Assembly (NCBI GenBank): GCA_964360785.1
Contig: CAYHXX010000004.1
Location: 5,568-69,567, forward strand
Direction: 5' to 3'
DNA from: an uncultured Gammaproteobacteria bacterium
GTDB lineage: Bacteria > Patescibacteriota > Microgenomatia > Woykebacterales > RBG-16-39-9b
DNA: 64,000 nt
Positions 469 to 48,306 of this stretch are shown here, piece after piece (within the stretch, counting starts at the first letter, position 1; the number at the start of each line of letters is the position of its first letter). The notes beneath the pieces are model-generated. The model saw nothing but the letters and a program-made list of their open reading frames with translations. It was not told where the DNA came from and searched no databases. The translations under genes and the position numbers were made by a program.

Positions 469-481
469 ACTATCCTATAGA

Positions 482-510
482 CTTGACAACTTAATTCTAA
501 CCTGTTAAAA
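482..510 (+). promoter_or_regulatory. sigma70-like promoter TTGACA-17-TAAAAT driving the GC-rich unit 525-1170
   Basis: ttgaca at 482-487, 17-nt spacer, taaaat. Confidence 0.45.
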
Positions 511-1138
511 TTCTGCCGCTTCACTCAACAAAGTGTAGCTAGGTGTTCCAAAATTCCTAAACCTACTGTCCCTCAGGTTGCGGATGATGGAGTGCTGAAA
601 CAGCTTTGGTGATTGGCCGTTTATTTGATTTGGCCAAAATGCCAGAAAAGGTCAGACCCCGCTCTCCAACGTGAGGAGAGGGTAGACCACAGGAGGGACA
701 TCATGGTTACGGTACTGCTGTACCTTGCCATTGTCACCGGAGACCTGGGTTACGTGGAGGATGCTGTGCGACACGCTGTGTCGTGCGACGCTTGCCTTCC
801 GGAGCTCATGGTTTTCATCTTCGGCTTCTAAAGCCGGAGTGTGACACCGAGCCGCGGTAAAACAAGTTCTTCCTGCAAAACTCGTCTTGACGAGTAGCTA
901 TAGGAAGTGTCTTGGATCGGCTTGGGAACAGAAGGTGTAGGAAGTCGAGTCCGAAAGGGCGCTAGGCTTCTCAAACCAATCACCCGGAGGAACGCCAACC
1001 TCCGAAATGTCCAGATGTCCGCAAGGCAACCTGGGCAAAAAACTAAACGTGCGGTTTGGGCTCTGCTTGACGATGCGTATGCAAAGTCAGCCCACCCAAC
1101 CAAAGAAGGCCAAATCAATTGGCCTGCTTTGGAGGAGT

Positions 1139-1170
1139 AACGACCTTGAAAGAGGTCGTTTTTCTTTTTC
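1139..1170 (+). terminator. intrinsic terminator (aacgacc-loop-ggtcg + T-run), member of a repeated terminator module
   Basis: gtaacgaccttgaaagaggtcgtttttctttttc; near-identical to 10761-10792 and 43605-43634. Confidence 0.6.
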
Positions 1171-1213
1171 TAACTCTTGACGGATATCTACGATTCCCTA
1201 TAATTTTTGAGAG

Positions 1214-2997: not shown

Positions 2998-4971
2998 ATG
3001 TCGAAACCTTTAATCATTGTGGAATCACCCACCAAAGCACGCACCTTAGCGCGTTTTTTGGGGGATGGTTTTCATATCGAAGCTTCGATGGGACACGTCC
3101 GAGATCTCCCCAAAGCCAAGCTTGGTGTTGATGTGGACAAAGACTTTGAACCACAATATGTTATTCCCAAAGATAAGCGCAAGACAGTCGAAAAGCTCAA
3201 GGAAATTAGCAAGACTGCCAAGGAAGTGATTCTCGCCACCGACCCTGACCGTGAAGGTGAGGCGATTGCTTGGCATATTAGTTTTTTAACAACTTCGAAC
3301 AAGGCTGATGCCGCAAAGCTCAAAAGAATTGTCTTTCATGAAATTACCAAGGAGGCGATAGAGGAGGCACTGGAAAAGCCAAGAACGTTAGATATCCAGC
3401 TTGTCGATGCCCAACAAGCCCGAAGAATCTTGGATAGATTGGTTGGTTACAAACTTTCTCCGCTACTTTGGTTTAAGGTAAAAAAGGGTCTATCAGCTGG
3501 TCGGGTGCAGTCAATTGCCGTACGTTTGATTGTTGAGCGTGAACGTGAGATCGAAGCCTTCAACCCAGATGAATACTGGTCTATCGATACTCTTCTGTCC
3601 AAAGCAAAGGACAAATTCAGTGCTTCTTTAGTTGAAAAGGAAGATAAGAAGATCGATCTCAAGAATGAAAAGGATAGCAAACCAATAGTTACTGACTTGG
3701 AAAAAGCCAATTATTCAATCAAGAATGTTAACCAACGCGAGTCCAAGAAAAGTCCTTACCCACCATTTACAACTTCAACCTTGACTCAAGCAGCAGCCAA
3801 TCGGTTCGGTTACACAGCCAAAAAAACAATGAAATTGGCACAAGATTTGTATGAGGAGGGGTTTATTACTTATCATCGTACGGATTCGGTCAATCTTTCC
3901 CAGTCGATTTTAACTGCCGCCAAGAAGTATATTGAAACAAGTCTTGGCAAAGAATATTTACCACTTGGGGGATCGCGTGTTTACAAAACCAAATCCAAAG
4001 TTGCCCAAGAAGCTCACGAAGCGATCCGCCCAACAAAACTAGAAGTCGATAAAGACAAAGTAGACCAGAGTGCCGACCACAAAAAACTCTACAAACTCAT
4101 CTGGGATCGGTTTATTGCCTCGCAACTCTCTGATGCGATTTACGATCACGTAACTTTGGATATCTCTGCTGACAAATATATGTTGCGGGCAAGTGGCTCG
4201 ATCATCAAGTTTGCTGGTTGGCTCAAAGTTTATGGTCGTGAGGAAGGTGATCAGATCGAGGAAAAGAAAGTCCCGCTTTTGCAGGTTGGGGACGATCTGA
4301 AACTGGAGGAGCTCTTGCCGGAGCAGCATTTTACCCAACCACCACCGCGTTATACAGAAGCGTCGTTGGTCAAGGCAATGGAGGAAAAAGGAATTGGCCG
4401 CCCATCGACCTATGCGCCGATTATTTCAACCATTCTGGACCGCAACTATGTAGAGCGAGAAGAACGAAAGTTCAAACCAACACCACTGGGTGTGGCAACC
4501 AACGACTTTCTCGTTAAAGGTTTCCCAAAACTGATCGATGCCGCTTTTACTGCCAAGATGGAGGGCTCTCTCGATAGTATCGCCAACGGTGAGGTGAAGT
4601 GGGTGCCGGTTATAAGAGAGTTTTTTGTCCCATTCCAGAAAGATCTTGATGAAGCCTACAAAAATGATCGGGTAAAAGTCGAAGCCGAACTTACTGATGA
4701 GCTTTGCCCAGAAGGCCATCGGCTTGTGATTCGTTATGGTAAGTTTGGAAAGTTCCTTGCCTGTGAAAAATTCCCAGATCACAAATTTACCAAGAATTTT
4801 GAAGAAAAGGTCGAAGCAGTTTGCCCAGATAGCGGTGATCCCGTCGTCGTTCGCCGGACGAGAAAAGGAAGACCGTTTTTCGGATGTAGTGCTTATCCAA
4901 AATGTAAGTGGATGAGTTGGAAAAATCCCGCTCTTGAGAACCAACCCTCAGCCCCAATTGCCGAAGCCTAG
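2998..4971 (+). CDS. topA: DNA topoisomerase I
   Basis: TOPRIM N-terminus MSKPLIIVESPTKARTLARFLG, active-site region, C-terminal Zn-ribbon CPEGH...C. Confidence 0.95.
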   Translation: MSKPLIIVESPTKARTLARFLGDGFHIEASMGHVRDLPKAKLGVDVDKDFEPQYVIPKDKRKTVEKLKEISKTAKEVILATDPDREGEAIAWHISFLTTSNKADAAKLKRIVFHEITKEAIEEALEKPRTLDIQLVDAQQARRILDRLVGYKLSPLLWFKVKKGLSAGRVQSIAVRLIVEREREIEAFNPDEYWSIDTLLSKAKDKFSASLVEKEDKKIDLKNEKDSKPIVTDLEKANYSIKNVNQRESKKSPYPPFTTSTLTQAAANRFGYTAKKTMKLAQDLYEEGFITYHRTDSVNLSQSILTAAKKYIETSLGKEYLPLGGSRVYKTKSKVAQEAHEAIRPTKLEVDKDKVDQSADHKKLYKLIWDRFIASQLSDAIYDHVTLDISADKYMLRASGSIIKFAGWLKVYGREEGDQIEEKKVPLLQVGDDLKLEELLPEQHFTQPPPRYTEASLVKAMEEKGIGRPSTYAPIISTILDRNYVEREERKFKPTPLGVATNDFLVKGFPKLIDAAFTAKMEGSLDSIANGEVKWVPVIREFFVPFQKDLDEAYKNDRVKVEAELTDELCPEGHRLVIRYGKFGKFLACEKFPDHKFTKNFEEKVEAVCPDSGDPVVVRRTRKGRPFFGCSAYPKCKWMSWKNPALENQPSAPIAEA

Positions 4972-5092
4972 ATTCCTAGATAAGTAGTTAATTGTATTTG
5001 ACAATTGTCTGCAATTGCGAAATGCGTCCTTGTTTCCAAAATAAGTTTAAGAAGCGCAACAATTTTAAGAAGTATGAATAAGGTACTAGTGT

Positions 5093-5131
5093 CCCATAGC
5101 ATTTGACTTTTGAACCTAAATATGCTATTAT
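5093..5131 (+). promoter_or_regulatory. promoter module cccatag-N-TTGACT-17-TATTAT, near-identical copy at 43213-43251
   Basis: cccatagcatttgacttttgaacctaaatatgctattat matches cccatagtacttgacttttgaagctaaatatactataat at about 35/39. Confidence 0.55.
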
Positions 5132-5198
5132 ATACACATAAGCTAAAAACTTATCTCGGCAGAACAAGTGTTCTCTCGAGTAGCACACTGGAGGAGAA

Positions 5199-5501
5199 AT
5201 GTCGGGCACGATTTGGGGGCTCTACGGTCTCGGATTCTTCACCGGAATCTTCGTGGTGGTCTTCAACAAGGACCAGCACGGGTGGCTCTGGAAGTTCAGC
5301 TGCATCTTTCTGGTCGGGTGGATCCCAGAGCGGATCTACACCTGGGGGCGGGCATTGTTCGGGCGGAAGCATACCATGTCGATCATGGGCTTCCTAACCC
5401 TTACCTTCCTGCTCATCTTCTTCTTCCCGGTCAGCATCCTGGTCTACTGGATGGCTAACCGGGGGAGGAGAACGGCAACGACGGGACCAGGCACGCCGTA
5501 G
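5199..5501 (+). CDS. small membrane protein (about 3 TM), GC-rich island
   Basis: SD ggaggag 2 nt before ATG; hydrophobic segments; high GC3. Confidence 0.45.
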   Translation: MSGTIWGLYGLGFFTGIFVVVFNKDQHGWLWKFSCIFLVGWIPERIYTWGRALFGRKHTMSIMGFLTLTFLLIFFFPVSILVYWMANRGRRTATTGPGTP

Positions 5502-5698
5502 GCACAACTCCAGGTGCGGGGCGGTCGGAAGTAGTTTCATGCGCAAGCACGAAACCTACCCGACCACCCTAATCCTAACTTTTAGTTTGCGAATTAGTTT
5601 CAATCCGCCAGCCGGCGGAGAAGCTAGCTCGGAAGCTAAAACTTCTTTCCGATAGAACAAGTTCATCGGAATATCACGGGGGATAGAAAGGAAAGACA

Positions 5699-5881
5699 AT
5701 GAGGTATTTGTTTTGGGCCGTGGGTTACGGACTGATCATTGGGGTCGTAATGACCGTCATGTTCGTCCATGAGCACATGGGCTCTACTACCGAAGGTCTG
5801 GAATGGTTCGTCATGATGACAGTGAACGGATCGTTCTTCTTCGGCGTACCCTTTGCCCTGCTGACGGTTCGGGAGGGGTAG
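5699..5881 (+). CDS. small membrane protein (2 TM), GC-rich island
   Basis: SD aaggaaag before ATG; two hydrophobic helices. Confidence 0.35.
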   Translation: MRYLFWAVGYGLIIGVVMTVMFVHEHMGSTTEGLEWFVMMTVNGSFFFGVPFALLTVREG

Positions 5882-6070
5882 CTGAATCATAGTTTCGGGC
5901 ACAAGAGTCACCTCTGCAACGGAATAATTGGTGGGTGCCTATTCCAAAGCGAGTAATCGCTGAGGAAGAAAGCACCCGCCCAACAACCAACTCTTCGACA
6001 GATAGGCACAATGGTGCTATACTTTATGGCTATCTGCGGGGGAGTTGAATGGAGTCAAGGAGAGAATCGC

Positions 6071-6562
6071 ATGGATTGCACATTTACACGGGTCATGTTT
6101 GGTCTTCTCGTCGTCATTCTGGTCGGGAACGCGATCACCCTGAAGAACGTTAGCCGCTCGGTGGCGCCGCGCACAGACGAGGAGAAGCGGGAAGCTATCG
6201 AGAGGACCGTGAGTAACCCGGCCGTGAATGGTGTCTATGATCCTGACGTCGTCGTGTACGCCACGACGCAGCTTCAAGGGATCTACGGGGACATGGTCAA
6301 CTATCCGGATCGACCGGTTCCGGTCGATGAAGTTCTACTCTACCTGACCTACCTCGCTGAGGGGTCGATGAGTAGACCAGACGCAATCGACTTCTGTAGC
6401 CGTGTACGTCCGCTCTGGAGTGCGTCGCACAGAATTGGCGATTTGCTTTTTGGAAAAGAGGCAACTCAGAATCAGCAAGACCTGTTCAGTAGAATTGACA
6501 ACGCCGTCGGTCAGAAAGACAAAGATGGTGCTTGTCAGTCTACACAGGAGGTGAGCACGTGA
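6071..6562 (+). CDS. hypothetical TM-anchored protein, GC-rich island (ORF track 6011..6562; ATG at 6071 preferred)
   Basis: SD aaggagag 6 nt before atggattgc; N-terminal TM then soluble domain; terminator hairpin at 6593-6637. Confidence 0.4.
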   Translation: MDCTFTRVMFGLLVVILVGNAITLKNVSRSVAPRTDEEKREAIERTVSNPAVNGVYDPDVVVYATTQLQGIYGDMVNYPDRPVPVDEVLLYLTYLAEGSMSRPDAIDFCSRVRPLWSASHRIGDLLFGKEATQNQQDLFSRIDNAVGQKDKDGACQSTQEVST

Positions 6563-6660
6563 ACAACGTTCCCACCGCAACAGGCACTTCGTGGATGAAT
6601 CCCCCCGGATCCACGAAGTGCCGTAAGTTTTTTCCAAATATTGAAATTAAAATCGAATAG

Positions 6661-8197: not shown

Positions 8198-8678
8198 CAC
8201 AACAATCAAGAAATTAATTCAAGAAAAGAAGATCAAGATAAATCCGTTTTCCAATGAATCTGTGGGGGCTGTTTCCATTGATCTTCATCTCGATGAAACC
8301 GCGCTCAATCCAGATACTCGTGTGGAAACAGATCTGAAAGATTTTCATCTCACACCAGATGAGTTTTATCTTGCCGCAACAGCGGAGTTTGTCGAACTTC
8401 CGAGCAATATTGTGGCCCGTGTTGTTCCAAGATCTTCGCTTGCCCGACTTGGAGTTTTGGCGACTTTTGATGCTGATATCTTGCCGCCAAATTATGCTGG
8501 AAAACCATTGTTGACTCTAAAAAATCTCTCGCGCAAACCAGTATTACTTAAACCCGGACTTGCGGTCGCGCAGATTATGTTTGAACAAGTTGATCAAGAG
8601 GTTGAAGGGTACAAAAGCCGTTACAACCATAAAAAGATCGAGGAAAGTAAACTTTGTGAGGAAATAGATGGCAAATAG
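8184..8678 (+). CDS. second Dcd/dUTPase-superfamily protein, short form, possibly a dUTPase
   Basis: MVLSNTTIKKLI..INP, RSSLARLGVLATFDADILPPNYAGKPLLTLKN; 14-nt overlap with the upstream dcd. Confidence 0.65.
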   Translation: MVLSNTTIKKLIQEKKIKINPFSNESVGAVSIDLHLDETALNPDTRVETDLKDFHLTPDEFYLAATAEFVELPSNIVARVVPRSSLARLGVLATFDADILPPNYAGKPLLTLKNLSRKPVLLKPGLAVAQIMFEQVDQEVEGYKSRYNHKKIEESKLCEEIDGK

Positions 8679-10239
8679 AACAGAAAAGTGGCCGCTTTTA
8701 TACGAAAACATTTTACGGGTTGGTGATCCAGACCAGTCGGTTGGGGTAGTTACACTCTGGACTGAGCGGGATGTGATTAAAGATTCACTCGAAAAGAAAG
8801 ATTACGCTGCCATTGGCAATCTGTATTCGCCAGCTGGCATAAACCACATGATGCGCAATGTTCTGGCCAACCCCAGCATTCGCCATCTAATAGTGTGGGG
8901 AGCGGATATGTCTGGTTCTGGTTCTTCTTTGCGTAATTTCTTTGAAAAAGGAATCGATAACGATTACAAGATTATTGATGCACCTGGTCAGATTGAGACT
9001 GAGATTCCCAAAGAAGCAGTCGAATCCTTCCGAACAAATGTTGAACTGATTGATATGAGAGGAAAACCAAAAGAAGAAGTTGTGAAAGCTGTCAAAAGTT
9101 TTAAAAAAGAAAAACCATTCCGAAAAGAAGCAGCTCTTTTCCCAGCCGCAGAGAAAAAAGTTGTCAGCTGGCCATCAGAGCAGATTAGTTTCCGGATTGA
9201 ATCGCCAAAAGTTGCTAGTCTTTGGTTGAAAGTTCTCAACATGGTGACCAAATACGGTCGGGTCAAATCTACCCGCTATGCCACGACCAATGAACTTAAA
9301 GAATTGCTCAATCTCAACTCTGTTCTTACAGACGAGGATCCAGACAATGAATATTTCCCCGAATATCTTCCCTTTACTACAAACGAACTGAAAGCTTATT
9401 ACCCAGAGTGGCTGACTGCTCGTCGTATTCCCGGAATGGCTTACAATTATGGTGACCGGATGCGCAATCTGGATGGAATCAATCAAATTGAAGAGATCAA
9501 AAAACTCTTACAGACTCGTCCAGATAGTAAAAAAATGATTGCATCTTTATATAATGTAAAAGTTGACTGGGCAGCAGCTAATACGGGTGACACACCTTGC
9601 ATCACCCAAGTGATTTGTGGTGTGCAAGATAAGAAACTCTTTATGACAGTCCATGTCCGCTCCCAGGATATGTTCCATGGTTGGCCGAGAAATATGTTTG
9701 CTGCCCGCAAAATGCAAAAAGAAATCGCCGACTCGGGTGGATATCCAATGGGGAAACTCGCGATGATTACTCACAGTGCCCATATGTACGCCGATGATTG
9801 GGCGACTGCACAGGAGCTTCTCGACAAGTACTATATAAAAGAAACAGCGCAGTATAAACCCGGTTTTCATTTCCAAGAAGACCCGAGGGGCAACTGGTTG
9901 GTAGACATTGATTGGGAAAACAAACTTATATTGGCCAAGTTGATGAGCCCAGATATGAGTACAGAGTTGACTATGTTTCATGGAAAAACGGCTAAAGAAG
10001 TGATAAAACAAATCGGTGAGTGGGAAATCCTGACTTTACCTTCACATGCACTTGATTTTGGAGCCGAGCTACAAAAAGCGGAGATTGCACTAAACTATGA
10101 TCTGCATGATTGGAAACAAGATCGAGCTATCAATTTCGAAAGACAGAAGGTGGAAAGCCCTGTGGTTGAAAAGTCAGAGCGAGTACTGCCGCCAACCCGC
10201 TATATCAAACGCGGGAAGAAATCTATCCCAATAAAATAG
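8668..10239 (+). CDS. fusion protein: N-terminal MtrA-like domain + thymidylate synthase (ThyA)-fold domain
   Basis: N-terminus KWPLLYENILRVGDPDQSVGVVTL..NPSIRHLIVWG..EIPKEAVESFRTNVELIDM resembles tetrahydromethanopterin S-methyltransferase subunit A; C-terminal half has ThyA motifs incl. nucleophile DTPCITQVI, VRSQDMFHGWPRNMFAARKM, ITHSAHMY; 11-nt overlap with upstream gene. Confidence 0.55.
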   Translation: MANRTEKWPLLYENILRVGDPDQSVGVVTLWTERDVIKDSLEKKDYAAIGNLYSPAGINHMMRNVLANPSIRHLIVWGADMSGSGSSLRNFFEKGIDNDYKIIDAPGQIETEIPKEAVESFRTNVELIDMRGKPKEEVVKAVKSFKKEKPFRKEAALFPAAEKKVVSWPSEQISFRIESPKVASLWLKVLNMVTKYGRVKSTRYATTNELKELLNLNSVLTDEDPDNEYFPEYLPFTTNELKAYYPEWLTARRIPGMAYNYGDRMRNLDGINQIEEIKKLLQTRPDSKKMIASLYNVKVDWAAANTGDTPCITQVICGVQDKKLFMTVHVRSQDMFHGWPRNMFAARKMQKEIADSGGYPMGKLAMITHSAHMYADDWATAQELLDKYYIKETAQYKPGFHFQEDPRGNWLVDIDWENKLILAKLMSPDMSTELTMFHGKTAKEVIKQIGEWEILTLPSHALDFGAELQKAEIALNYDLHDWKQDRAINFERQKVESPVVEKSERVLPPTRYIKRGKKSIPIK

Positions 10240-10281
10240 TTATAGGGTTGACAAATCCTTTTTTTGTGTTAGAATCCAAGC

Positions 10282-10551
10282 GTGGACGCTTGGATGCGCA
10301 CTTGTGTGTCGGAGCGGCCTGTCTTCTCTGCTACCCTGGTAACGGATCAGGTGTTGGTGGACTTTTCCGAGGAGGAGACTCTGCAGCTTGCTGTAGAGTA
10401 TCTGAATTGGGGTGAGTTCACGATCCTGATTTCAGTATCAGTGGTAGGAGAAGGCGGGTTGGTTGAAGTACCAGAACCACTTAGGGAGGAGCTGACGGAT
10501 TACTTCCGGACGCACCACCTTCGTGGGGTTGGGACCAAGACCGCGCTCTAG
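10282..10551 (+). CDS. hypothetical ORF in a GC-rich unit (weak; no SD)
   Basis: only long ORF between promoter ttgaca-17-tagaat (10246-10275) and terminator 10761-10792; transcript begins with a hairpin ccaagcgtggacgcttgg. Confidence 0.2.
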   Translation: MDAWMRTCVSERPVFSATLVTDQVLVDFSEEETLQLAVEYLNWGEFTILISVSVVGEGGLVEVPEPLREELTDYFRTHHLRGVGTKTAL

Positions 10552-10760
10552 GCCACCGGGGGTTTGATGGAATCCTTGTCGACAAATCTATCAACGCAGC
10601 CAGCGTGAGATAGTATCCATCCGGTTCTACTCAACCGTTTGTGGTATGCAAAGACCACGGAGAATGAGGGGAGTGTAGGGAGCGAAAGGAGAGTGCTATG
10701 TATAAAGCATACACCTGTCCCTACCTTAAGATTTTCAAACTTTGGAAAGCTTAAGAAGAG

Positions 10761-10792
10761 GAACGACCTAGAAATGGGTCGTTTTTCTTTTT
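10761..10792 (+). terminator. intrinsic terminator, repeated module copy 2
   Basis: aacgacctagaaatgggtcgtttttctttt. Confidence 0.6.
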
Positions 10793-10819
10793 ATCAAACG
10801 TATAGTATATTAGTCACCT

Positions 10820-11482
10820 ATGCATGGAAAAATTATTGATTTTGAAGGAATAGACGGTACTGGAAAAAGTACTCAGGTCAAACTTCTAATAAACTATTTA
10901 AAGAAAAACAAAAAGAAGCATAGTTTCTACAAATTTCCACAGTATCAAGCTACTTTCCACGGTAAAACTATTACCAAGTTTCTCAGGGGAGAGTTTGGGA
11001 CGATTTCTGACGTCAGCCCGTATTTGATCTCCCTTGCCTACGCGATGGATCGGGTTTCAACCAAAGAAAAACTTTTTGATGATCTCAACGACGGTAAAAT
11101 AATTATCTGCGACCGTTACGCTCCAAGTAACAAAGCCCATCAAGCTGCCAAAATGATTGAGCCAAAAAGAGCGGATTTCCTGAATTGGTTAGACGAGCTT
11201 GATTACAAAGTTAACAAAATGCCGCGGGAAGATTGGGTAGTTCTGCTTGATATGACAGTAGAGTCAGCATTTAAACTTCTCGAAAAAATCCCACGCAAAA
11301 AAGACATCCACGAGACTGAAGCAGCATACATGGAGGAAGCTCGCAAAGTTTATCTCAAAATGGCCCAGGGTAACCATCACTGGCTCGTTATTAATTGTAT
11401 AGACGAAAAAGGTAAACTCAAAAGCAAAAACCAAATTCACAAAGAGATAGTTGAGATTTTATCCCAAAAGCATATAATCTAA
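10820..11482 (+). CDS. tmk: thymidylate kinase
   Basis: P-loop FEGIDGTGKST, DRY-type ICDRYAPSN, lid region. Confidence 0.85.
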   Translation: MHGKIIDFEGIDGTGKSTQVKLLINYLKKNKKKHSFYKFPQYQATFHGKTITKFLRGEFGTISDVSPYLISLAYAMDRVSTKEKLFDDLNDGKIIICDRYAPSNKAHQAAKMIEPKRADFLNWLDELDYKVNKMPREDWVVLLDMTVESAFKLLEKIPRKKDIHETEAAYMEEARKVYLKMAQGNHHWLVINCIDEKGKLKSKNQIHKEIVEILSQKHII

Positions 11483-11503
11483 TCGAATTTCGGGAGGTGA
11501 GAC

Positions 11504-12094
11504 GTGAAGGTCTATCTGTTCCTGTACCCGATCAAGGAGTACATCTACAGCCTGCTTCTGATGTGGCCAACTTTCAGTTTCAACGAACATCAAGCGAGTG
11601 AAATCAATCGGTTAATCAGGGCCAGATATCGCGAAAGAGGTTACCAGATCTGGTGGTTGCTATTTAGCGACCCTAATGACCTCGAAAAGCCAGATTTGAC
11701 TAGGATATTTGATGGAATGAATATCTTAGAGGGGGATACACTGATTCCTTGTGGGATTACCTTCCAAGACCACATCAGTAAGAAACTGTACGCGGACTCG
11801 GAGAGAGTTGTTGATCGATTACCTAAGGATATTGAAGAATTGGTACTAGGAGGTTTCCACCAGGGCGATTGTGTTGACAAGGTTGCCGCGTGTGCTTATT
11901 CACGGGGGACACCTACTTTTGTCGACGAAGATACGACAGAATACTTTTTCTCGCGAACAGGGTCTATGGGCGATATACCTACTCTTAGAGAAGAATTTAG
12001 GGTGAGTGAGTTAACTTCAGAGCGGGATAAAACTTGGATTAATTGGATTCTAGAGCGCAGAAGAAATAAACCATGGTTGACACAAAAACCATGA
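11504..12094 (+). CDS. hypothetical protein (GTG start)
   Basis: ORF after tmk; no recognised motif. Confidence 0.35.
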   Translation: MKVYLFLYPIKEYIYSLLLMWPTFSFNEHQASEINRLIRARYRERGYQIWWLLFSDPNDLEKPDLTRIFDGMNILEGDTLIPCGITFQDHISKKLYADSERVVDRLPKDIEELVLGGFHQGDCVDKVAACAYSRGTPTFVDEDTTEYFFSRTGSMGDIPTLREEFRVSELTSERDKTWINWILERRRNKPWLTQKP

Positions 12095-12641: not shown

Positions 12642-13511
12642 ATGAGCCTACCAAGTTTAAAAGAACTGCTTGAAGCAGGTGTCCATTTTGGTCACGAGAC
12701 CAAGCGTTGGAATCCAAAGATGGCTTCTTATATTTTTACAGCCAAAGAGCGTATCCATATCATTGATCTGGAAAAAACTGATGCAGCATTGAAGAAAGCG
12801 ACTGATTTTGTACGTCAGATCGGCCAAAACAATGGTCAGATAGTTTTCCTAGCTACCAAGAGACAAGCCTCGGAAATCGTCAAAAACGAAGCTATTAGAG
12901 TCGGTGCGATGTATTTGACAACCCGTTGGGTTGGAGGTTTGTTTACCAATTTTGAAGCAGTTTCAAAAACCTTGACCAAACTCACAGAGCTTGAGGAAAA
13001 GTCCAAGGATGAACGTTATACCAAGCGCGAGCAGCTGCTGATGACCCGAGAAATCGACAAGATCATTCGCAGTCTTGGCGGCGTACGCCACATGCAAAAA
13101 CTTCCAGAAGCAATATTTATCGTTGATAGCCATAAGGAAGTGAATGCGATACTTGAGTCCCAGAAAACTGGAGTAAAAATTGTCGCAATCGTTGATACAA
13201 ATGGAGACCCAACAGTAGTTGATTACCCAATTCCTGGCAATGATGATGCGATACGAGCAATCTCAATCCTGGTCAAGACTATTGCCGACAGTTACCTTGA
13301 AGGTAAAGAAAAAGGTGAAAAGATCGAGAAGGTTATAGAAGAAGAAAAAACCGAGGGCGGTGTCGCCGCAGAACCTGTAAAAGAAAAGCCTAAGAAGGCT
13401 CCGGCAAAAAAGGCCACTGAGAAAGTAGTTGAGAAAAAGGAAGTAAAAAAGAAAGTTACAAAAGTAAGCAAGAGCTTCATTCTAACGAAAGTAAAAAAGG
13501 AGAAAGCCTAA
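12642..13511 (+). CDS. rpsB: 30S ribosomal protein S2 with K/E-rich C-terminal extension
   Basis: MSLPSLKELLEAGVHFGHETKRWNPKM... Confidence 0.95.
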   Translation: MSLPSLKELLEAGVHFGHETKRWNPKMASYIFTAKERIHIIDLEKTDAALKKATDFVRQIGQNNGQIVFLATKRQASEIVKNEAIRVGAMYLTTRWVGGLFTNFEAVSKTLTKLTELEEKSKDERYTKREQLLMTREIDKIIRSLGGVRHMQKLPEAIFIVDSHKEVNAILESQKTGVKIVAIVDTNGDPTVVDYPIPGNDDAIRAISILVKTIADSYLEGKEKGEKIEKVIEEEKTEGGVAAEPVKEKPKKAPAKKATEKVVEKKEVKKKVTKVSKSFILTKVKKEKA

Positions 13512-23819: not shown

Positions 23820-24686
23820 ATGTCGATAGACGAAACGGTCGTAAGGCCGCAAGTTGCCCTTTTCATCGATCTGGAAAACATCCGCTACAGTTTCTTGAGC
23901 CAGTTCAAATATGAACCGGATTTCAAGTCACTTTTCGGTGTTGCCCGGGCGGAAGGTCCTGTCTCGGTCGCCTACGCCTACGCCGATTTTTCACGTCACC
24001 CTGAGGCGGTGCGTCGGCAACTGGAAGCGTTGGGGATCACCTGCCGTGACACCCCAGTGCGGGTTCAGCAATCCAACGGCGAGACTCGGGTCAAAAGTAC
24101 TGTAGACCCGCAAATGATGCTCGACATCTTAGAGACGGCGCTTGACCGGCCGCAGGTTAAGACCTTCATCGTTGGGACCGGGGACTCGGACTTTTTGCGC
24201 ATCGTGACGATGTTGCAAAACCGATTCGAGAAACGGGTCTTGGTAATCGGGGTGCCGGGAACCCTGAGCCAGGATCTTGCGGCAGCGGCTACAGACGTCA
24301 TAAACCTGGAGCCGGTTGTCATTACGGGTGACAACCCGATCGTCGGGGCGATCGTTCATCTAATGAGGACGAAAACACCGCCGGTGGGGTTCTGGACACT
24401 CCCGCAACTTGCCAAGTGGGCGAACCAGACCCATAATGGGGTTCCGGGAACGGATAGCGAAAGGTCGGCTGCTATCTCGTTCATGGTCCAGAACGGTTTA
24501 ATCAGGCAGGAGGTCCTGCCGGCCGAAGGCGAGCTAACCGAACGACGGGCCAGCAGTATTGATGAGGAGAACGAGCTGGTCAAAGAGATTCTCGCAGGCA
24601 GCACACCAAAACAGACACCCGGTCAAAGTCTTCTCGAGGCGTTCAGGGAGGCCGACTTGTCTGGAGAAAGTAACGCCAACAACTGA
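23820..24686 (+). CDS. NYN-domain (LabA-like) protein with C-terminal LOTUS/OST-HTH-like domain, GC-rich
   Basis: VALFIDLENI, TFIVGTGDSDFLRIV, RVLVIGV typical NYN core; C-terminal WTLPQLAKWAN..GLIRQE helix-rich domain. Confidence 0.55.
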   Translation: MSIDETVVRPQVALFIDLENIRYSFLSQFKYEPDFKSLFGVARAEGPVSVAYAYADFSRHPEAVRRQLEALGITCRDTPVRVQQSNGETRVKSTVDPQMMLDILETALDRPQVKTFIVGTGDSDFLRIVTMLQNRFEKRVLVIGVPGTLSQDLAAAATDVINLEPVVITGDNPIVGAIVHLMRTKTPPVGFWTLPQLAKWANQTHNGVPGTDSERSAAISFMVQNGLIRQEVLPAEGELTERRASSIDEENELVKEILAGSTPKQTPGQSLLEAFREADLSGESNANN

Positions 24687-28275: not shown

Positions 28276-28872
28276 ATGCAAATCCCCAAAAGTGTAGCGG
28301 CGGTTATCGCTGAATTTGAAAAACTTCCTGGTATTGGGCCAAAGAGTGCCCAGAGGCTGACCTATTATTTACTTCACGCGCCCAAAGAATATGCTCACGC
28401 CCTCTCTTCTGCAATTTCCGAGCTGCGGGACAAGACAGTGCTTTGTAGCACTTGTTACAACGTTGCCGAAGCAGATCCTTGTGAAGTTTGCGCAAGTACA
28501 TCCCGTGACCGCTCGGTGATCATGGTAGTTGAGGAACCCCTTGACGCTTTGGCGATGGAGCGTTCAGGTTCTTTCAAAGGCATGTATCACGTTCTTCACG
28601 GAGTGATCGCGCCACTTGATAATATTGGTCCAGATGAGCTCTACCTCAAACAGCTTTTGCCGAGATTGAAGTCAGGCGAGGTTAACGAAGTGATTTTGGC
28701 GACCAATCCAAATATCGAAGGCGAGGCCACCGCAATGTATATCCAAAAACTACTTTCACCACTTGGGCTTCACATTACCCGGATCGCACGTGGGCTGCCC
28801 ACAGGAGCCGATCTGGAATATGCTGATGAAACTACTCTTTCGCGGGCAGTCGAGGGAAGAGTGGACTTTTAG
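28276..28872 (+). CDS. recR: recombination protein RecR
   Basis: HhH LPGIGPKSAQRL, C4 zinc finger CSTCYNVAEADPCEVC, Toprim. Confidence 0.9.
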   Translation: MQIPKSVAAVIAEFEKLPGIGPKSAQRLTYYLLHAPKEYAHALSSAISELRDKTVLCSTCYNVAEADPCEVCASTSRDRSVIMVVEEPLDALAMERSGSFKGMYHVLHGVIAPLDNIGPDELYLKQLLPRLKSGEVNEVILATNPNIEGEATAMYIQKLLSPLGLHITRIARGLPTGADLEYADETTLSRAVEGRVDF

Positions 28873-28962
28873 ATTTGACTTTCAAGTCCGCGAGAATGCA
28901 AACCTTCTTAGATTTGACTTTCAAGTCCGCGAGAATGCAAACCTTCTTAGATTTGACAAGGT
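28870..28962. repeat. 39-bp direct tandem repeat, about 2.4 copies, beginning at the recR stop codon
   Basis: tagatttgactttcaagtccgcgagaatgcaaaccttct repeated perfectly at 28870-28908 and 28909-28947 plus a partial third copy. Confidence 0.85.
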
Positions 28963-32624: not shown

Positions 32625-32741
32625 AGGTTTGATAAGAATTATTTTAAAATCTAATTACTAGCCTCAAGGCTAGTTTTTTGTTGTATAAGCACGATAATTC
32701 CATCTCGCGCTTGTAACTCTGACGAGTTATAATCACAGCCA

Positions 32742-34189: not shown

Positions 34190-34264
34190 AATGGGTTCCA
34201 AGTTTAACATCGTTCTCGTTATTAGCCTCACCCTTATGGAGGGCGGCTCTGACGTTGACCGGTA
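34190..34264 (+). CDS. candidate 24-aa hydrophobic peptide MGSKFNIVLVISLTLMEGGSDVDR, near-leaderless
   Basis: promoter ttgaca(34153)-17/18-tagtat ends 8 nt before the ATG; terminator hairpin gacctcctaccacaggaggtttttt follows at 34294-34320. Confidence 0.2.
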
Positions 34265-34351
34265 AGTTACCTGGAACAACAACGAACGAGCTGACCTCCT
34301 ACCACAGGAGGTTTTTTCGTTTGTTGGAGCTCAAAGCCATCCGGAAGTGAG

Positions 34352-34855
34352 GTGGAAAGTTTCCACCGCCAGGCCAAGCAAGGAGGAATGGTAATGGCCG
34401 AAGGTAGTCTCAACGGGTTCAAGGGAGAGATCGTGCGGTTCCGGTTGCAAGATGTGCCAGAACCTGTGGTAGTCTGTTACGTCAAGAGGACTGGCCTTGC
34501 CGCGGTGTGGATCAAGGCGTTGGGACGTCACGACGCGGAGGTAGAGCTATCCGGCGCTGGCTTTACTGAGATCGAGGCCGCGACCAACGCTGTTCGGCAG
34601 CTGCTCGGTGAGGCTGACGGCAACCAGTTGAAAGTCTACCGAGCGGAGCCCAAGCGGGAGAAGCGCAGTGGCGTTAGCGTAGTTCAGTCGGCCATCTCCT
34701 ACGATGTCGGCGCCGAATACCGCGAGGAGTTCGGACAGGGGACTGGTGCCCACCGACTTGCCACCCAAGCTTATATCATGGCGCTCTTCACGGCGATCAA
34801 TAAGATCCACGTGAAGTTGGCGAACCGCGAGATGGTACCGGTAAGGACAGCATAG
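34352..34855 (+). CDS. hypothetical protein, GC-rich (likely start ATG 34394 after SD aaggagga)
   Basis: high GC3 ORF; no recognised motif. Confidence 0.4.
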   Translation: MESFHRQAKQGGMVMAEGSLNGFKGEIVRFRLQDVPEPVVVCYVKRTGLAAVWIKALGRHDAEVELSGAGFTEIEAATNAVRQLLGEADGNQLKVYRAEPKREKRSGVSVVQSAISYDVGAEYREEFGQGTGAHRLATQAYIMALFTAINKIHVKLANREMVPVRTA

Positions 34856-34916
34856 AAAGAAGAAAAAGAGATGGTCCTTCACGCCTCCGAACCGCATTGG
34901 ATCGGAGGCTTCTTTT

Positions 34917-36404
34917 TTGGTACAATTGAAGGTACTTAAAACAACCATGCCCAGGTACTCAAGCCTCAAGCCTAATTTTCAAAAAGGATTCACGTTTTTG
35001 CACAGCGAAAAGGCAGAACGAGTGCTAAAATTGTTTTTGCAAAAAGCAAAAACCAGCACTGGATTTACACTTTCGGAGGTTCTGATAGCTTCTGCGATTA
35101 TCGCGATTATCGGTGTGTCCATAATGAGCACCGTCGCCCTTTTTCTCAAGTTTTCGGCTGATGCACGCGGGCAAATCCAAGCCCAAAATCTCGCTCATCA
35201 GAAAATCGAATTTATCCGCAACATGCCTTATGACGACGTAGCCACAGTAGCAGGGGCGATCTACCCACCGGGAAACATTCCGGATAATGAAGACATCACG
35301 GTCGACAATCAAGTTTATAAAGTTCAGACACTGATAAACTACGTTGATGACCCCTTTGATGGGGATGTTGGGGGGACAATAGTTGGAAAACCAGTGGATA
35401 TTTATCCCTATGACTACAAAAAGATCAGTATAAAAATTCGGGATAAGAATAATTCCAAAATATTGGCTCAGACTACAACAACAATGTCGGCCAAGGCTGC
35501 TGAAACTGCAACCAATACGGGAATTTTATCCTTGCGAGTGCAGAATTCCCAGGGGAATCCTGTAGCAGGAGCAGTTGTTAATGTTACCAACCCGACTCCA
35601 GTTCCGCCGGTCAATATCAATACATTTACTGATGTTTCCGGACTAGTTTTGATACCGTCGCTTCCACCAAGTTCAAACAATGAGTATCATGTTACGGTGA
35701 GTTTAAGTGGTTACAACAGCGACTCTACCAACCCAGCTTTTGCTCCCAACAACCTTAGCCCAGTGAAGCCAGACTTCAATATTCTAGCGCAGCAAATAAC
35801 GCCACTAACGTTGGAAATAGATCTTGTGGGTAGCATGCAAATAACCGCAAGAGATACTGCTGGAGCAGTCATGACTGGTCTAAACCTGAGCGTGAAAGGG
35901 GATAAATTGACTTATGCTTCTCCAGATACATACAAGTTTAGTCAAACTGCCGCAACTGACGGCAGTGGTGTGGTAAATTTGAGCAATCTCGAGTGGGATA
36001 GCTATAGTATCGCTGTGCCCAGTGGTTACTACATTGTTTCAAGTTCGCCTTATCAGAAAGTTAGCGTCAGTGCGGGTCAGGGTATCAATGTAAGTTTAGT
36101 GGTTACAAACAATAGTAACTATCCGACTGTAGCCAGCACCATGCCAAGTGCGGGAGTGAATAACTCGACCTTAGATTTCAACATTACCGGTACAAATCTA
36201 GTTTCGGGAACAACCGTGCTCTTGCGTCTGGCTGGGCAGCCTGATATCAGTGCAACCGGAGTTATTAGTGCCAGTGGAGATACAGAATTAACGGGCACAT
36301 TTGATTTAACCGGAAAACAATCAGGGATTTGGGATTTGATAGTTACAGATCCGAGTAGCCGGGTTGTGACGCAAACTGGCGGTTTTAGCATCAGCGCACC
36401 CTAA
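34917..36404 (+). CDS. type IV pilin-like protein with long leader
   Basis: class III signal KTSTG|FTLSEVLIASAIIAIIG (E at +5) preceded by a leader containing QKGFTF decoy motif. Confidence 0.6.
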   Translation: MVQLKVLKTTMPRYSSLKPNFQKGFTFLHSEKAERVLKLFLQKAKTSTGFTLSEVLIASAIIAIIGVSIMSTVALFLKFSADARGQIQAQNLAHQKIEFIRNMPYDDVATVAGAIYPPGNIPDNEDITVDNQVYKVQTLINYVDDPFDGDVGGTIVGKPVDIYPYDYKKISIKIRDKNNSKILAQTTTTMSAKAAETATNTGILSLRVQNSQGNPVAGAVVNVTNPTPVPPVNINTFTDVSGLVLIPSLPPSSNNEYHVTVSLSGYNSDSTNPAFAPNNLSPVKPDFNILAQQITPLTLEIDLVGSMQITARDTAGAVMTGLNLSVKGDKLTYASPDTYKFSQTAATDGSGVVNLSNLEWDSYSIAVPSGYYIVSSSPYQKVSVSAGQGINVSLVVTNNSNYPTVASTMPSAGVNNSTLDFNITGTNLVSGTTVLLRLAGQPDISATGVISASGDTELTGTFDLTGKQSGIWDLIVTDPSSRVVTQTGGFSISAP

Positions 36405-36406
36405 AT

Positions 36407-41408: not shown

Positions 41409-41493
41409 ATATCCCAACAATTTGAAGACCTAGAGTATAATGGCTGCAATAGCAGGAAGAATTCATCTGCTGAAAAGTTAGTGGGAGGGTGCG

Positions 41494-41736
41494 ATGCGAG
41501 TGGTTACCGCCGACTCTCTGAACACCCTTCGGGTTGGGCAGAGAGCCAGATACACTGGGATGGTGAGGCGAAGAGAGCTTACGGCGCTCGTTCGTGTCAA
41601 CGGGGTCTACAGCCGTCACGCGGGTTTGCGCATCGAAGTGATCAAGAAGCAGAAGCCGGCGCGCAGCTTCAAGATTGGAGATACCTTCACCATCGCTTTC
41701 GGCAAGCACGAGACGCTAGCGGTGGAGGACGACTAA
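41494..41736 (+). CDS. small hypothetical protein 1 of GC-rich four-ORF operon
   Basis: SD gggaggg 4 nt before ATG; GC3-rich. Confidence 0.35.
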   Translation: MRVVTADSLNTLRVGQRARYTGMVRRRELTALVRVNGVYSRHAGLRIEVIKKQKPARSFKIGDTFTIAFGKHETLAVEDD

Positions 41737-41774
41737 TCGGCAAGGAAGTAGCTGGCGAAAAGCCAGGAGGTGTT

Positions 41775-41963
41775 ATGCCCAGAATGATCATTGAAATCGA
41801 GTCGGAAGACGGGATCGCGATCGACGAGTTGGTTGCGGCGGCTGCCCTTTCTAAGTTGATCCTGGGTCTTGTTGATCCCGGGTCAATCCCCGCCGAACCC
41901 AAGCGTATTCCTGTTCCGTTTGGTCGGGGCCAGCTCTTTCTGAGCTGGACCTTCGAGGCTTAA
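41775..41963 (+). CDS. small hypothetical protein 2 (62 aa)
   Basis: preceded by hairpin-SD module tagctggcgaaaagccaggagg. Confidence 0.35.
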   Translation: MPRMIIEIESEDGIAIDELVAAAALSKLILGLVDPGSIPAEPKRIPVPFGRGQLFLSWTFEA

Positions 41964-42684: not shown

Positions 42685-42849
42685 TCAAGAACATACCTAA
42701 CGCGAGAGTGGAGAGAAGATCAATTCCTGTCCACAAGGGTCGTCGCATCATGCACGACCCTTTCGCGTTTTAATTTTCAAAAAACTTGTCCCGATTGAAT
42801 CGGGATTTGCTTATCTTAGGTCCTGAAATTAAAATAAAAGAAAAAGCTC

Positions 42850-43212: not shown

Positions 43213-43251
43213 CCCATAGTACTTGACTTTTGAAGCTAAATATACTATAAT
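43213..43251 (+). promoter_or_regulatory. promoter module, second copy of the 5093-5131 element (TTGACT-17-TATAAT)
   Basis: cccatagtacttgacttttgaagctaaatatactataat. Confidence 0.55.
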
Positions 43252-43286
43252 AATATCAATCAGGTGTAGCGTGAAAGGATAGCACC

Positions 43287-43487
43287 ATGATTGCGTTGTT
43301 CGTCATAATGGCGATTCCGTTCTGGTTTCTGGTGGTGATCCGAGTAGTTCTACTTACGATCCTCGCCATCTTCCTCATCGCCATCTTCATTACATTGTCC
43401 CAAATCGGGAGAAGTGGTGAGAATGGGATTACCGCAATGCAGAAGAGACTGAAGCGGGAGGCGAAAGAGAAGGAGGCGAAGAAGTAG
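43287..43487 (+). CDS. small membrane protein with K/E-rich tail, GC-rich cassette
   Basis: SD aaagga before ATG; two hydrophobic helices; terminator module 43605-43634. Confidence 0.4.
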   Translation: MIALFVIMAIPFWFLVVIRVVLLTILAIFLIAIFITLSQIGRSGENGITAMQKRLKREAKEKEAKK

Positions 43488-43604
43488 GAGAATAGGTTAC
43501 ACGGATGGGAGCGGTCGGCGAAAGCCAGACTGAACCGTAGCGAACCACAAGTTTGCTCTCTTCCCGGCCCTTAAGAAAATCAGATTGGTTTGTTTAAGAA
43601 GAGA

Positions 43605-43634
43605 AACGACTCAGCAATGGGTCGTTTTTCTTTG
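43605..43634 (+). terminator. intrinsic terminator, repeated module copy 3
   Basis: aacgactcagcaatgggtcgtttttctttg. Confidence 0.6.
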
Positions 43635-43677
43635 GGAAAATTTGCTTATCTACGGAGGGAAAAGTTAAAATCAAAAT

Positions 43678-46613: not shown

Positions 46614-46828
46614 TAACTCAATTATAGCAGAAATTCTTTAGCCCAAGTTTCCGCTAGTTCGATTTCACTTTTTCCCAACAAAAAACCCCGATTTAGTCGG
46701 GGTTACTTGTCCTAAGAAAACCTCCGCTAGATCAGCGGATTGGAGATTTGCTTGGGGATCGAGGCGTAACTGGCGGTTACGTCTCGGTGGATCTCTCATA
46801 ACTTTTTCCTTTCCTGGTTGCGGACTGG

Positions 46829-47149
46829 TTACTGCTGATTCACTAAGGTGCGCAGCTTGTCAGCGTACAGGAAGCTGTAGATCCCCACCATCGCTGTTGC
46901 GATGAGTGGCGGACAGAACAATTCGAAGTACACGTTCTTATCCCCGAGGACCAAGGGCCAAGGGGCGGCTAACATTGACCCAGCCAGGATGAGTAACCAG
47001 ACCAGTGGATGGAGCTTTGCTGCCCACTCTCTGGCCGGTGAGAACTTGAAGTCCTTGTCGAGAAAGGCGATGCACATGTAGATCACGAAAAACACCGAGA
47101 TCTCGAAACCCAAAAGGGCCAGCACCGTGTTGTGTACCAAATCCTCCAT
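46829..47149 (-). CDS. hypothetical membrane protein
   Basis: three hydrophobic segments; terminator hairpin ccccgatttagtcgggg downstream on the minus strand. Confidence 0.4.
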   Translation of the reverse strand: MEDLVHNTVLALLGFEISVFFVIYMCIAFLDKDFKFSPAREWAAKLHPLVWLLILAGSMLAAPWPLVLGDKNVYFELFCPPLIATAMVGIYSFLYADKLRTLVNQQ

Positions 47150-47172
47150 AATTCCTCCTCGGCTTTCGCCGT

Positions 47173-47448
47173 TTAGAGCCCTTCCATTCGATATTGCGGG
47201 CTCGGTCCCAATTCCTTCTTTTCTACAGCGTCAGGCGGTGGATCCACCAACTTCCAGCGTGTATCACCGCCAGCGTAATCGCTGTCCTGGTCAACGTAAC
47301 CTCGTGGGTCAAGTGCATTGTTCAGCGATTGGACCACACCGTTCACACTGAGGCATGTTCGGGTTGCAATCTCTCGCGCAGTGCCCGCTCCTCCCAGCTC
47401 ATGCAGAGCTTGGAGTATGGTCCTTTGGATGGGCTTTAGGCTTGGCAT
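47173..47448 (-). CDS. winged-helix DNA-binding protein, GC-rich
   Basis: RTILQALHELGGAGTAREIATRTCLSVNGVVQSLNNAL HTH. Confidence 0.45.
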   Translation of the reverse strand: MPSLKPIQRTILQALHELGGAGTAREIATRTCLSVNGVVQSLNNALDPRGYVDQDSDYAGGDTRWKLVDPPPDAVEKKELGPSPQYRMEGL

Positions 47449-47598
47449 GGCCGCTCCTTACCGAATGCCTGGTTTAGCTTATCAACATTATACTTCGGTT
47501 ATACAAATTTTGAGAAATAAGTCGGGGAAAAAGAGAAGAGCCCCCGCCGTAATGAGGGAGGGGCTCTTGGTTGTGCCGTCACGTCGAGGAGCATTGGG

Positions 47599-48108
47599 TT
47601 AGCTTGCGGCCGCGTCGTTGCTCGTGGCGTCCGCCTGTTCCTCGCTGATCGGCAGGATGTCAGGCGAGTTCTTGTCCTCCTGAATCTCCTTCATCCTGTC
47701 CTTGCAGATTCCTGCCACCGCGCTCCAGATCCACCTGGAGATCACCTCGTCGAGGTGCGATAAGAGGCCGGAAACCGCGGCAGCGAGCTCATCCTGCACG
47801 AAGCCGCCGGCGAAGCGGGCGTCTCCGCCTTCGAGGATCCACGGCGCCTCATTGACGATATAGCTGGACGATTGGCCCGTGCGATGACATAGTTCGGCCT
47901 TCGCGCGGGCGATCTCGTCGTACTTGTGCGCCCAGCTCTCCTTGGGGTCCACGGCGATAGTGGTCTCGTAGAGATGAAACGACGGTTCGATCACCACGAT
48001 GTGGAGGTTCCTCCTGCCGCCGCCGAGCTCCGCGAGGAGCGCGTCGATCGAAGGGCGAACCAAGGCGACGGCCTGGTCGAAGACTTCCTGGGTAACCAGA
48101 AACGACAT
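47599..48108 (-). CDS. hypothetical protein, GC-rich (possibly GlcG/DUF336-like)
   Basis: high GC3; terminator hairpin gagcccctccctcattacggcgggggctc on minus at about 47527-47570. Confidence 0.35.
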   Translation of the reverse strand: MSFLVTQEVFDQAVALVRPSIDALLAELGGGRRNLHIVVIEPSFHLYETTIAVDPKESWAHKYDEIARAKAELCHRTGQSSSYIVNEAPWILEGGDARFAGGFVQDELAAAVSGLLSHLDEVISRWIWSAVAGICKDRMKEIQEDKNSPDILPISEEQADATSNDAAAS

Positions 48109-48306
48109 GGGTTTACTCTCCCTTTTCTAACTCAACCTGTCCAAACTTATGGACAAGGATTTACGAGTAAAATCATGCTTGATTATAGCAGAAAAAGAGA
48201 AGTATGTAAATACTATAAGATAGTTACCGGCCTCATTACTCTTTCTTCCTATTTTTATCAGATGATAGGAGAACTATTGGTTCCGCACTAAGAAGTGTTA
48301 ATTGAA

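Follow-up and report, generated by a model that had tools for sequence, protein, structure and literature searches.

A two-hairpin RNA 3'-end module that probably closes self-contained GC-rich units in a groundwater CPR clade

The window analyzed here, a stretch of 64,000 nucleotides within a 79.7-kb contig of a Hainich groundwater metagenome (0.1-um filter), contains look-alike sites that we consider likely to be copies of a conserved ~82-nt RNA 3'-end module closing self-contained units in a clade of groundwater CPR bacteria, the stepwise action proposed below included. Our preferred reading of this module is that of an intrinsic terminator which carries its own clamp for the 3' end and, in addition, an accessory hairpin. 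In silico, we could show the structure with its covariation, its strand specificity, its association with folded units rich in GC, and, for the units, polymorphic insertion with mosaic junctions; termination, RNA stabilisation and recombination through the modules, together with the mechanism of exchange, are roles that we infer. The relatives are CPR/Patescibacteria. The preliminary description of this DNA, which had noticed a stereotyped terminator tied to GC-rich units together with a shared promoter, is confirmed and turns out to have been understated.

The contig harbors the core-chromosome genes rpsB-tsf-frr, proS, mfd, dnaX, recR, cysS, ychF, rpsF-ssb-rpsR, dprA, topA, dcd, a thymidylate-synthase fusion and tmk, and the nearest named homologues of its Tmk, labelled Woykebacteria and Saccharimonadales, are 46-56% identical. 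GC content of the window is 43.7%, with ~10 GC-rich islands. No integrase, transposase or phage genes were detected on the 80-kb contig (Pfam recombinase search), a recombinase Pfam match was likewise missing from the related contig L183, and a tRNA scan of the window found none. Pfam and PHROGs searches with 10 GC-rich ORFs returned a single NYN domain only and therefore no phage signal. Unit 1 and its module, described below, are present in three replicate Hainich assemblies, and are thus neither a chimera nor an engineered construct. The thymidylate-synthase fusion (8668-10239) joins thymidylate synthase (PF00303) to MtrA-like (PF04208) and pterin-binding DUF4346 (PF14251) domains and is kept in all four relatives examined (L195-L198).

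Three sites match AACGAC-N9-GGTCGTTTTT with 0 mismatches on the + strand, at positions 1139, 10762 (initially placed at 10761) and 43605. None of 100 dinucleotide shuffles of the window matched the observed count, and a repeat finder grouped the three sites as one 51-nt family (D3) with 71-80% identity. The loop of 8-9 nt assigned to these hairpins at first proved wrong, as each hairpin has a 9-bp stem capped by a GNRA tetraloop (GAAA or GCAA). The terminator module as such is real, but only its second hairpin had been seen: the likeness runs upstream into a module of ~82 nt, comprising a 13-bp upstream hairpin (H1) and the GNRA-capped terminator hairpin (H2).

The consensus obtained by aligning 26 copies displays these two hairpins. 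H1 (CCTAAG-C-AAATCTC...GAGGTTT-T-CTTAGG, 13 bp) is an imperfect palindrome: its arms are interrupted by a mismatch in the centre, and its terminal loop varies widely in length, from a few nt to about 50. In most copies, a pyrimidine-rich stretch precedes H1. H2 consists of a 9-bp core and the GNRA loop and is lengthened by a purine linker (AGGAGAAA) pairing with the T-tail; the C in TTTTTCTTT is conserved because it is paired with a linker G. Covariation supports both helices. Paired cells amount to 95.3%, a figure that falls to 60% or less once partners are displaced by 1-3 columns, the covariation score was equalled in 0 of 500 shuffles, and compensatory changes occur in eight of the 13 H1 pairs. 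The linker-tail helix covaries as well, with type A copies, partly ascertained by a pattern fixing AACGAC/GGTCG, reading AGGAG..TTTTTCTT (G:C) and type B copies ACAAG..TTTTTTGT (C:G). In type B (linker ACAAGAAG, stem CTAGCT/GGCTAG, tail TTTTTTGTT), the odd tail base is a G whose partner in the linker is a C, which amounts to a compensatory exchange of the type A pair. Conserved G-U pairs (for example in 21/26, 23/26 and 18/26 copies) and the far weaker scores that the model gives to the reverse strand favour a structure at the RNA level, formed by the sense strand. A mini-ORF starting at a loop ATG behind the AGGAGG-like linker was also considered and rejected, the ATG being missing in copy 1 and several other copies and the spacing being too long.

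A covariance model of the module (R1) finds about 40 copies in related CPR/Patescibacteria contigs from several sites, including copies outside the search pattern that combine different H2 stems with the same H1. Full-module matches reach E-values of about 1e-15 to 1e-18, which are rough owing to a shortened calibration. The bare hairpin AACGACC..GGTCGTTTTTCTTT behaves differently, with >119 genome matches mostly in unrelated bacteria; as its scan of reference genomes returned mostly unrelated generic terminators, next to six CPR contigs with extended sequence, the bare hairpin is not diagnostic. A more specific metagenome scan added about 25 further contigs. This generic occurrence of the bare hairpin could speak for ordinary terminators that are alike by chance or by local duplication in this genome only, an explanation to which we give practically no weight: the full module is specific (0/100 shuffles, the above E-values and ~40 covarying copies in other CPR contigs), and covariation together with the copies in other CPR contigs refutes it. 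Rfam 15 yielded no match in the window at gathering score, and at E<=1 nothing at module sites of L183, L176, L165 and L148, where matches were confined to four tRNA genes and one chance sX4, all in L176. Viral contigs scanned with the type A hairpin and H1 consensus gave no match, nor did BLAST against phages and plasmids, and our literature search found no earlier description of the module or the cassette scaffold. With two covarying helices, ~40 copies and no Rfam family, the module is a well-supported new RNA structure.

In the window, R1 identifies four copies, all of which fold as predicted (z -4.8 to -5.9; z-scores throughout derive from 20-25 shuffles and are approximate) and form a stable stem-loop followed by a U-rich tract, namely a 9-bp core, GNRA loop and T5(C/G)T3. 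Copy 1 (1090..1171, +; 80.8 bits; two-hairpin MFE -30.3 kcal/mol, z -5.3) comprises H1 at 1100-1132 (+), with outer stem CCAAAG..CTTTGG and inner stem GGCCAA/TTGGCC, and linker plus extended H2 at 1133-1168 (+). The corresponding unit 1 starts with a promoter at 474..511 (+) made up of a CCTATAG box, a -35 element TTGACA (483-488) and a -10 element TAAAAT (506-511) with TG upstream; its body (518..1099, +; GC 0.53, body fold z -6.5) contains an ORF at 703-831 (+) encoding a hydrophobic peptide of 42 aa behind a strong Shine-Dalgarno sequence (SD), remaining ORFs being doubtful. Unit 2 has its promoter at 10239..10275 (+; -35 TTGACA at 10248-10253, -10 TAGAAT at 10270-10275), with a box TTATAGGG that abuts the stop codon of the upstream gene, and a body (10282..10724, +) with an 85-aa ORF at 10294-10551 that shows no recognisable SD and a structured 3' region of ~170 nt. 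It ends in copy 2 (10715..10794, +; 78.5 bits; z -5.6; H1 10725-10755, linker and H2 10756-10791), which is 95.7% identical to its orthologue in the relative L200. The spacer between T-tail and tmk (10795..10819, +; ..ATCAAACGTATAGTATATTAGTCACCT) is kept in L195, L198 and L200, and probably serves as a replacement promoter for tmk. Unit 3 combines a promoter at 43213..43252 (+; CCCATAG box, -35 TTGACT, -10 TATAAT) with a body at 43258..43569 (+), in which a 66-aa ORF (43287-43487), membrane-like and with a Lys/Glu-rich tail, is followed by a 3' UTR and copy 3 (43560..43637, +; 75.0 bits; z -5.9; H1 43570-43598, linker and H2 with a GCAA loop 43599-43633).

The three members listed in the preliminary description are joined by a fourth that it had missed, copy 4 at 46673..46766 (-; 37.3 bits, E about 1e-6; z -4.75). 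Copy 4 has a conserved H1 (CCCCAAGCAAATCTCC..GGAGGTTTTCTTAGG) and the linker ACAAGTAA, and its terminator is "type B"-like, with a differing stem AACCCCGA/TCGGGGTT and the tail TTTTTTGTTGGG. It closes unit 4 (46767..48222, -), which has a CTTATAG box, a promoter TTTACA/TGCTATAAT at about 48217-48182 and three GC-rich ORFs (47599-48108, 47174-47449 and 46829-47149, all -). A hairpin regarded as related, terminating a four-ORF island at 42737..42764 (+), does exist, but its kinship does not hold: it is a single hairpin without H1 or linker-tail pairing and gave no model match even unfiltered at E<=5. Two hairpins had been cited as native host terminators; the one at 32657-32674 is one indeed, and the one at 56797-56825 (-) instead ends a GC-rich unit (56876-57280, -). 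The association of the module with GC-rich units stands, and its use extends to only ~4 of roughly 10 such units in the window.

The other GC-rich units lack Pfam domains, apart from one NYN-domain gene, and lie at 5140-6640, 34190-34920, 41450-42780, 56790-57800 (-) and 23820-24686. Each of these five has its own promoter and an unrelated terminator, with fold z between -0.2 and -5.6, indicating that the cassette phenomenon is broader than the module. A 40-nt promoter module recurs with 88% identity at 5093-5132 and 43213-43252 (CCCATAG..TTGACTTTTGAA.CTAAATAT.CTAT.ATA; repeat D15), and L060, like many other contigs, has this promoter too. The unit that starts at 5093 ends without the module. 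Within the four-ORF island, a small hairpin with a GAAA loop stands before each ORF and is fused to the SD (CTGGCGAAAAGCCAGGAGG; 41748-41782, 41974-42008 and 42301-42335), and a similar GGCGAAAGCCGAGGAGG precedes a unit 4 ORF at about 47160-47180 (-). These hairpins may be intercistronic processing or stability elements.

The same design is apparent in contigs with multiple copies, where a promoter box (YATAG-N0-4-TTGAC) is followed by one or a few ORFs of 50-58% GC and then by the module, and where such units alternate with host ORFs of 30-40% GC. The 300 nt upstream of the module are GC-richer than those downstream (51.4% versus 39.7%) in 34 of the 35 copies with enough flank (p=4e-10), bearing out the suggested co-occurrence with GC-rich units. 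Promoters are conserved as CCYATAG-N2-3-TTGACTT..TATTTTTGCTATAAT, or overall CCYATAG-TTGAC...TGnTATAAT; for 20 of 40 units the distance from box to module is 345-811 nt, with one more, window unit 4, at 1451 nt, and the box displays an eight-fold rise over these units. All five boxes of this kind in the window start GC-rich units, four of which close with the four modules. Cassette ORFs exhibit a coding-type distribution of GC over codon positions, with GC3 raised to 0.5-0.85 compared with 0.3-0.45 in host genes, and are mutually unrelated except for one pair. The family of this pair counts about 745 representatives and appears in three genomes, in three contexts and with three different terminators; for the 169-aa cassette protein and eight other family members scanned, no Pfam match exceeded threshold, with one weak sub-threshold match to PASTA.

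Copies of the module are found at many intergenic sites in both orientations, in convergent pairs, which point to one-way action, and in tandem module-promoter-ORF-module arrays in L183, L148 and L142; several copies occur within a few kb in L183, L176 and L148. Being palindromic, intergenic and present in multiple copies per genome, the module might be taken for an independent selfish repeat of the MITE or REP type inserted downstream of genes, its link to the units being incidental. We regard this as very unlikely: it is always co-oriented with the upstream GC-rich body (40 of 40 copies follow a same-strand unit) at a short distance, the last ORF usually ending 40-90 nt ahead, it is paired with a specific promoter, and junctions examined show neither terminal inverted repeats nor target duplications. 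Comparably little credit goes to the view that the units are type I toxin-antitoxin loci, in which the conserved 3' end pairs with an antisense antitoxin RNA. The small hydrophobic peptides of units 1 and 3 (42 and 66 aa) and highly folded mRNAs with predicted 5'-3' long-range pairing would suit such loci; however, the proteins encoded by most units with the module are not hydrophobic and measure 80-330 aa, no convincing antisense promoter was seen, and the reverse strand scores poorly with R1. The preferred reading, a 3'-end module closing a recurring promoter-body-terminator scaffold, also accords with the presence of this scaffold around unrelated bodies in >20 contigs from other genomes. 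The idea of a common modular scaffold holds in the sense of a natural one that recurs; that it was "built" is unsupported, given its presence in three Hainich replicates and other environmental assemblies and the lack of a match in phage and plasmid collections.

The units are extremely folded. Whole-unit z-scores are -7.7, -8.0 and -5.8 for units 1, 2 and 3, compared with +0.1 for tmk, -1.5 for the GC-rich NYN gene and -0.6 +/- 1.1 (minimum -2.4) for 21 host segments; 20 units in other contigs range from -3.2 to -11.2, and their bodies without the module from -0.9 to -7.7. Long-range 5'-3' pairing is predicted in units 1 and 2. In unit 2, all 175 predicted pairs survive the changes that separate window and L200: nine are altered yet paired, and other differences fall in loops. 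Codon changes in the unit 2 "ORF" are 10 nonsynonymous versus 7 synonymous, compared with 24 versus 60 in tmk. Folding, pair conservation and the substitution pattern of this ORF suggest that selection for RNA structure, and not a foreign origin, may account for part of the GC-richness, and would offer an account of GC-rich islands in AT-rich genomes that does not invoke foreign DNA.

These data also bear on the possibility that the module is chiefly a functional RNA domain, either a 3' element to which a protein binds or the core of an sRNA derived from the 3' end, with termination being secondary and the units being structured ncRNAs. A terminator needs no H1-like hairpin, and still H1 is conserved and covarying; a unit in L135 consists of promoter, leader and module without an ORF; bodies are extremely folded; the unit 2 "ORF" without SD changes with all predicted pairs kept; and most copies have the pyrimidine-rich stretch before H1. 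Against this, many units elsewhere contain long ORFs (100-330 aa) with GC1>GC3>GC2 and strong SDs, Rfam gave no match, and we know of no partner protein or target for the module. As the main function, we consider this rather unlikely, although it is compatible with, and does not exclude, the terminator-clamp reading.

Insertion polymorphism was analyzed by comparison with relatives. Gene order around tmk is kept in four of them, with a gap of 2 nt between the thymidylate-synthase fusion and tmk in L196 and L197. The same junction is filled by unit 2 in the window; in L195 it holds ~1 kb that includes three other small ORFs, and in L198 a GC-rich ORF of 173 aa whose terminator is unrelated. At this junction, the one dissected in detail and the basis of the mosaic-boundary result, what window and L195 have in common is limited to a patch of H1, the patch GTCGTTTTTC, and the tail with TATAGTATATT and the tmk start. 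The site of unit 1 is empty in L197 and occupied by a different small unit in L196, and in L170 a unit with the module stands immediately before dcd, a position at which the window has no such unit. The close relatives L195 and L198, of which 18-21 kb each were examined, lack the module in these stretches and have cassettes with other terminators; the module is therefore not essential to such cassettes. The closer relative L200 harbors an orthologous unit 2, and a block at about 10200-10860, covering the cassette and ~40 nt of each flanking gene, is 93-100% identical between window and L200 with a mid-ORF drop to 82%, the flanking housekeeping genes being 65-84% identical. Such a sharply bounded block implies recent exchange or very strong constraint, with constraint fitting the mid-ORF drop better. 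The scaffold is best taken as a natural one that is propagated, and is probably swapped through homologous recombination, among related CPR genomes.

Turnover of cassette content at a fixed junction recalls integrons, and H1 could accordingly be a folded-DNA recombination site resembling attC, with capture of cassettes by a site-specific recombinase whose gene lies elsewhere in the genome. As in integron cassettes, units are small, mostly orphan genes, and the imperfect palindrome at the end of each has a mismatch in its centre and a variable loop; several copies cluster within a few kb in the three contigs named above. Moreover, CCTAAG/CTTAGG of H1 resembles the R''/R' boxes of attC. The core-site consensus of these boxes is RYYYAAC ... 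GTTRRRY, however, which the outer stem CCTAAG...CTTAGG does not match. In further contrast to integron cassettes, each unit has its own promoter, units are dispersed over intergenic sites in mixed orientation including convergent pairs, and no integrase or transposase was found on the 80-kb contig or L183. Finally, the conserved G-U pairs would be mismatches in folded DNA, and A.C mismatches on the bottom strand, and thus favour an RNA structure. We therefore judge the integron-like explanation improbable; an attC-like site and an RNA-protein recognition element are given a low to moderate probability.

By analogy, the closest precedents are PeSL composites and phage morons. PeSLs (promoter-early stem-loops), mobile regulatory cassettes of T4-type phages, combine a conserved terminator stem-loop with a strong promoter of the sigma-70 type and flank orphan ORFs in hyperplastic regions of T4-like phage genomes, where the motifs delimit the indels and replacements seen between close relatives; a dedicated recombinase is not involved, exchange being credited to homologous recombination, and mini-circle intermediates occur (PMC2839356, PMC4122927). 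Similarly, the module and the CCYATAG-TTGAC..TGnTATAAT promoter flank unrelated ORFs and form tandem arrays with them; the one junction analysed in detail, with three inserts and common patches at H1 and at tail/promoter, is mosaic and may reflect replacement of the PeSL type. Unlike PeSLs, the present units reside in cellular CPR chromosomes between housekeeping genes, with no match in viral and phage collections; the module possesses a second conserved hairpin and the linker-tail clamp, and bodies are GC-rich and extremely folded. Phage morons are autonomous promoter-gene-terminator insertions. The units resemble them in being self-contained, with own promoter and terminator, in lying between genes that are adjacent in relatives, and in their deviant composition, yet differ by the housekeeping context without prophage or phage genes around them and by promoter and terminator sequences that are conserved across unrelated cassettes and genomes, a feature for which, to our knowledge, morons are not known. 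With ordinary Rho-independent terminators whose upstream A-tract pairs with the U-tail, the module shares a GC-containing stem, a tetraloop, a U-tract and an upstream purine tract complementary to the tail; it departs from them by sequence conservation across genomes, by a covarying G:C/C:G pair in the tail helix and by the obligatory 13-bp upstream hairpin.

Under the terminator-clamp reading, transcription of each unit would start at a strong promoter of the sigma-70 type, preceded by a CCYATAG box, and run through a GC-rich folded body with small ORF(s) into the module. As polymerase exits the structure-prone body, H1 (13 bp) would fold first and keep terminator and body apart. Intrinsic termination would then result from the 9-bp core of H2 with its GNRA cap, followed by U5(C/G)U3, and would shield the neighbouring housekeeping gene, which would have its own promoter just past the tail. 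After release, the purine linker is predicted to zip to the U-tail, so that the 3' end would be buried in a helix of ~15 bp beside H1, which should guard the RNA against 3' exonucleases. At the DNA level, promoter and terminator pieces would travel with the cassettes and probably provide homology patches for gain or replacement. A conserved scaffold of promoter and terminator that accepts one body after another would give accessory genes a simple way in and out, notable on an 80-kb contig without classical mobile-element genes, and in CPR/Patescibacteria, whose genomes are tiny and streamlined, yet carry in this lineage many autonomous extra units between essential genes. As a covariance model, the module together with the promoter constitutes a practical handle for finding such units in metagenomes.

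More speculatively, and with clearly less confidence, the units could represent a new cassette system of cellular CPR chromosomes, independent of a recombinase or served by an unknown one, in which a fixed "expression scaffold", kept even without cargo as in L135, has GC-rich hyper-structured RNAs or mini-genes swapped in and H1 acts as a recognition element for an RNA-binding protein or the recombination machinery. Such a system would be the cellular equivalent of phage PeSLs or integron cassettes, and the units would form a new abundant class of structured RNA.

Further elements were observed around the cassettes. The L135 unit (3930-4230, -) contains no ORF and measures just 209 nt from box to module; its promoter, its 5' leader and a 3' UTR that is the same as in L183_12098 are followed by the module, making it either a deletion derivative or an "empty scaffold"/small RNA. 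A conserved, clearly structured 5' leader of ~140 nt (..ATTAACAA..GGCAYCTTGTAACTGG..TAACTGTCATTRC..CCTGAAG..GCCAGTTACCAGGTGCCTTTTT) is present in four module-bearing units, in L135 (about 3930-4230, -), L149, L090 (about 4890-5070) and L183 (about 12750-12910, -). This leader, absent from the window and without an Rfam match in L183, where it was searched, could be riboswitch-like. Another conserved element, occupying the ~75-100 nt ahead of the box and ending ..AAGGTTCGAACRTCGTCCACGAYTCGGAGCCA-N4-CCYATAG, occurs in L183 (three copies), L148/L154, L142/L182 and L165, and carries a T-loop-like GGTTCGAA and a ..GCCA end; ARAGORN predicted no tRNA in these elements, nor did Rfam at E<=1 on L183, L176, L165 and L148. 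In L142, a real tRNA-Lys (11471-11545) stops 8 nt before the cassette promoter box. Two sets of repeats were seen elsewhere in the window. A perfect 39-nt tandem duplication (TTAGATTTGACTTTCAAGTCCGCGAGAATGCAAACCTTC x2) at 28869-28946, intergenic and located after recR, includes TTGACT, a -35-like hexamer. Tandem repeats of 57 nt and dispersed copies (..GGATTTACGTTTT..AAAAGGCAGAGCC.TTGTTAAAAT) at 36455-36617, 37219-37289 and 34983-35031 lie in or near an N_methyl/pilin-like gene cluster (34917-38838) and resemble repeated N-terminal pilin-type segments.
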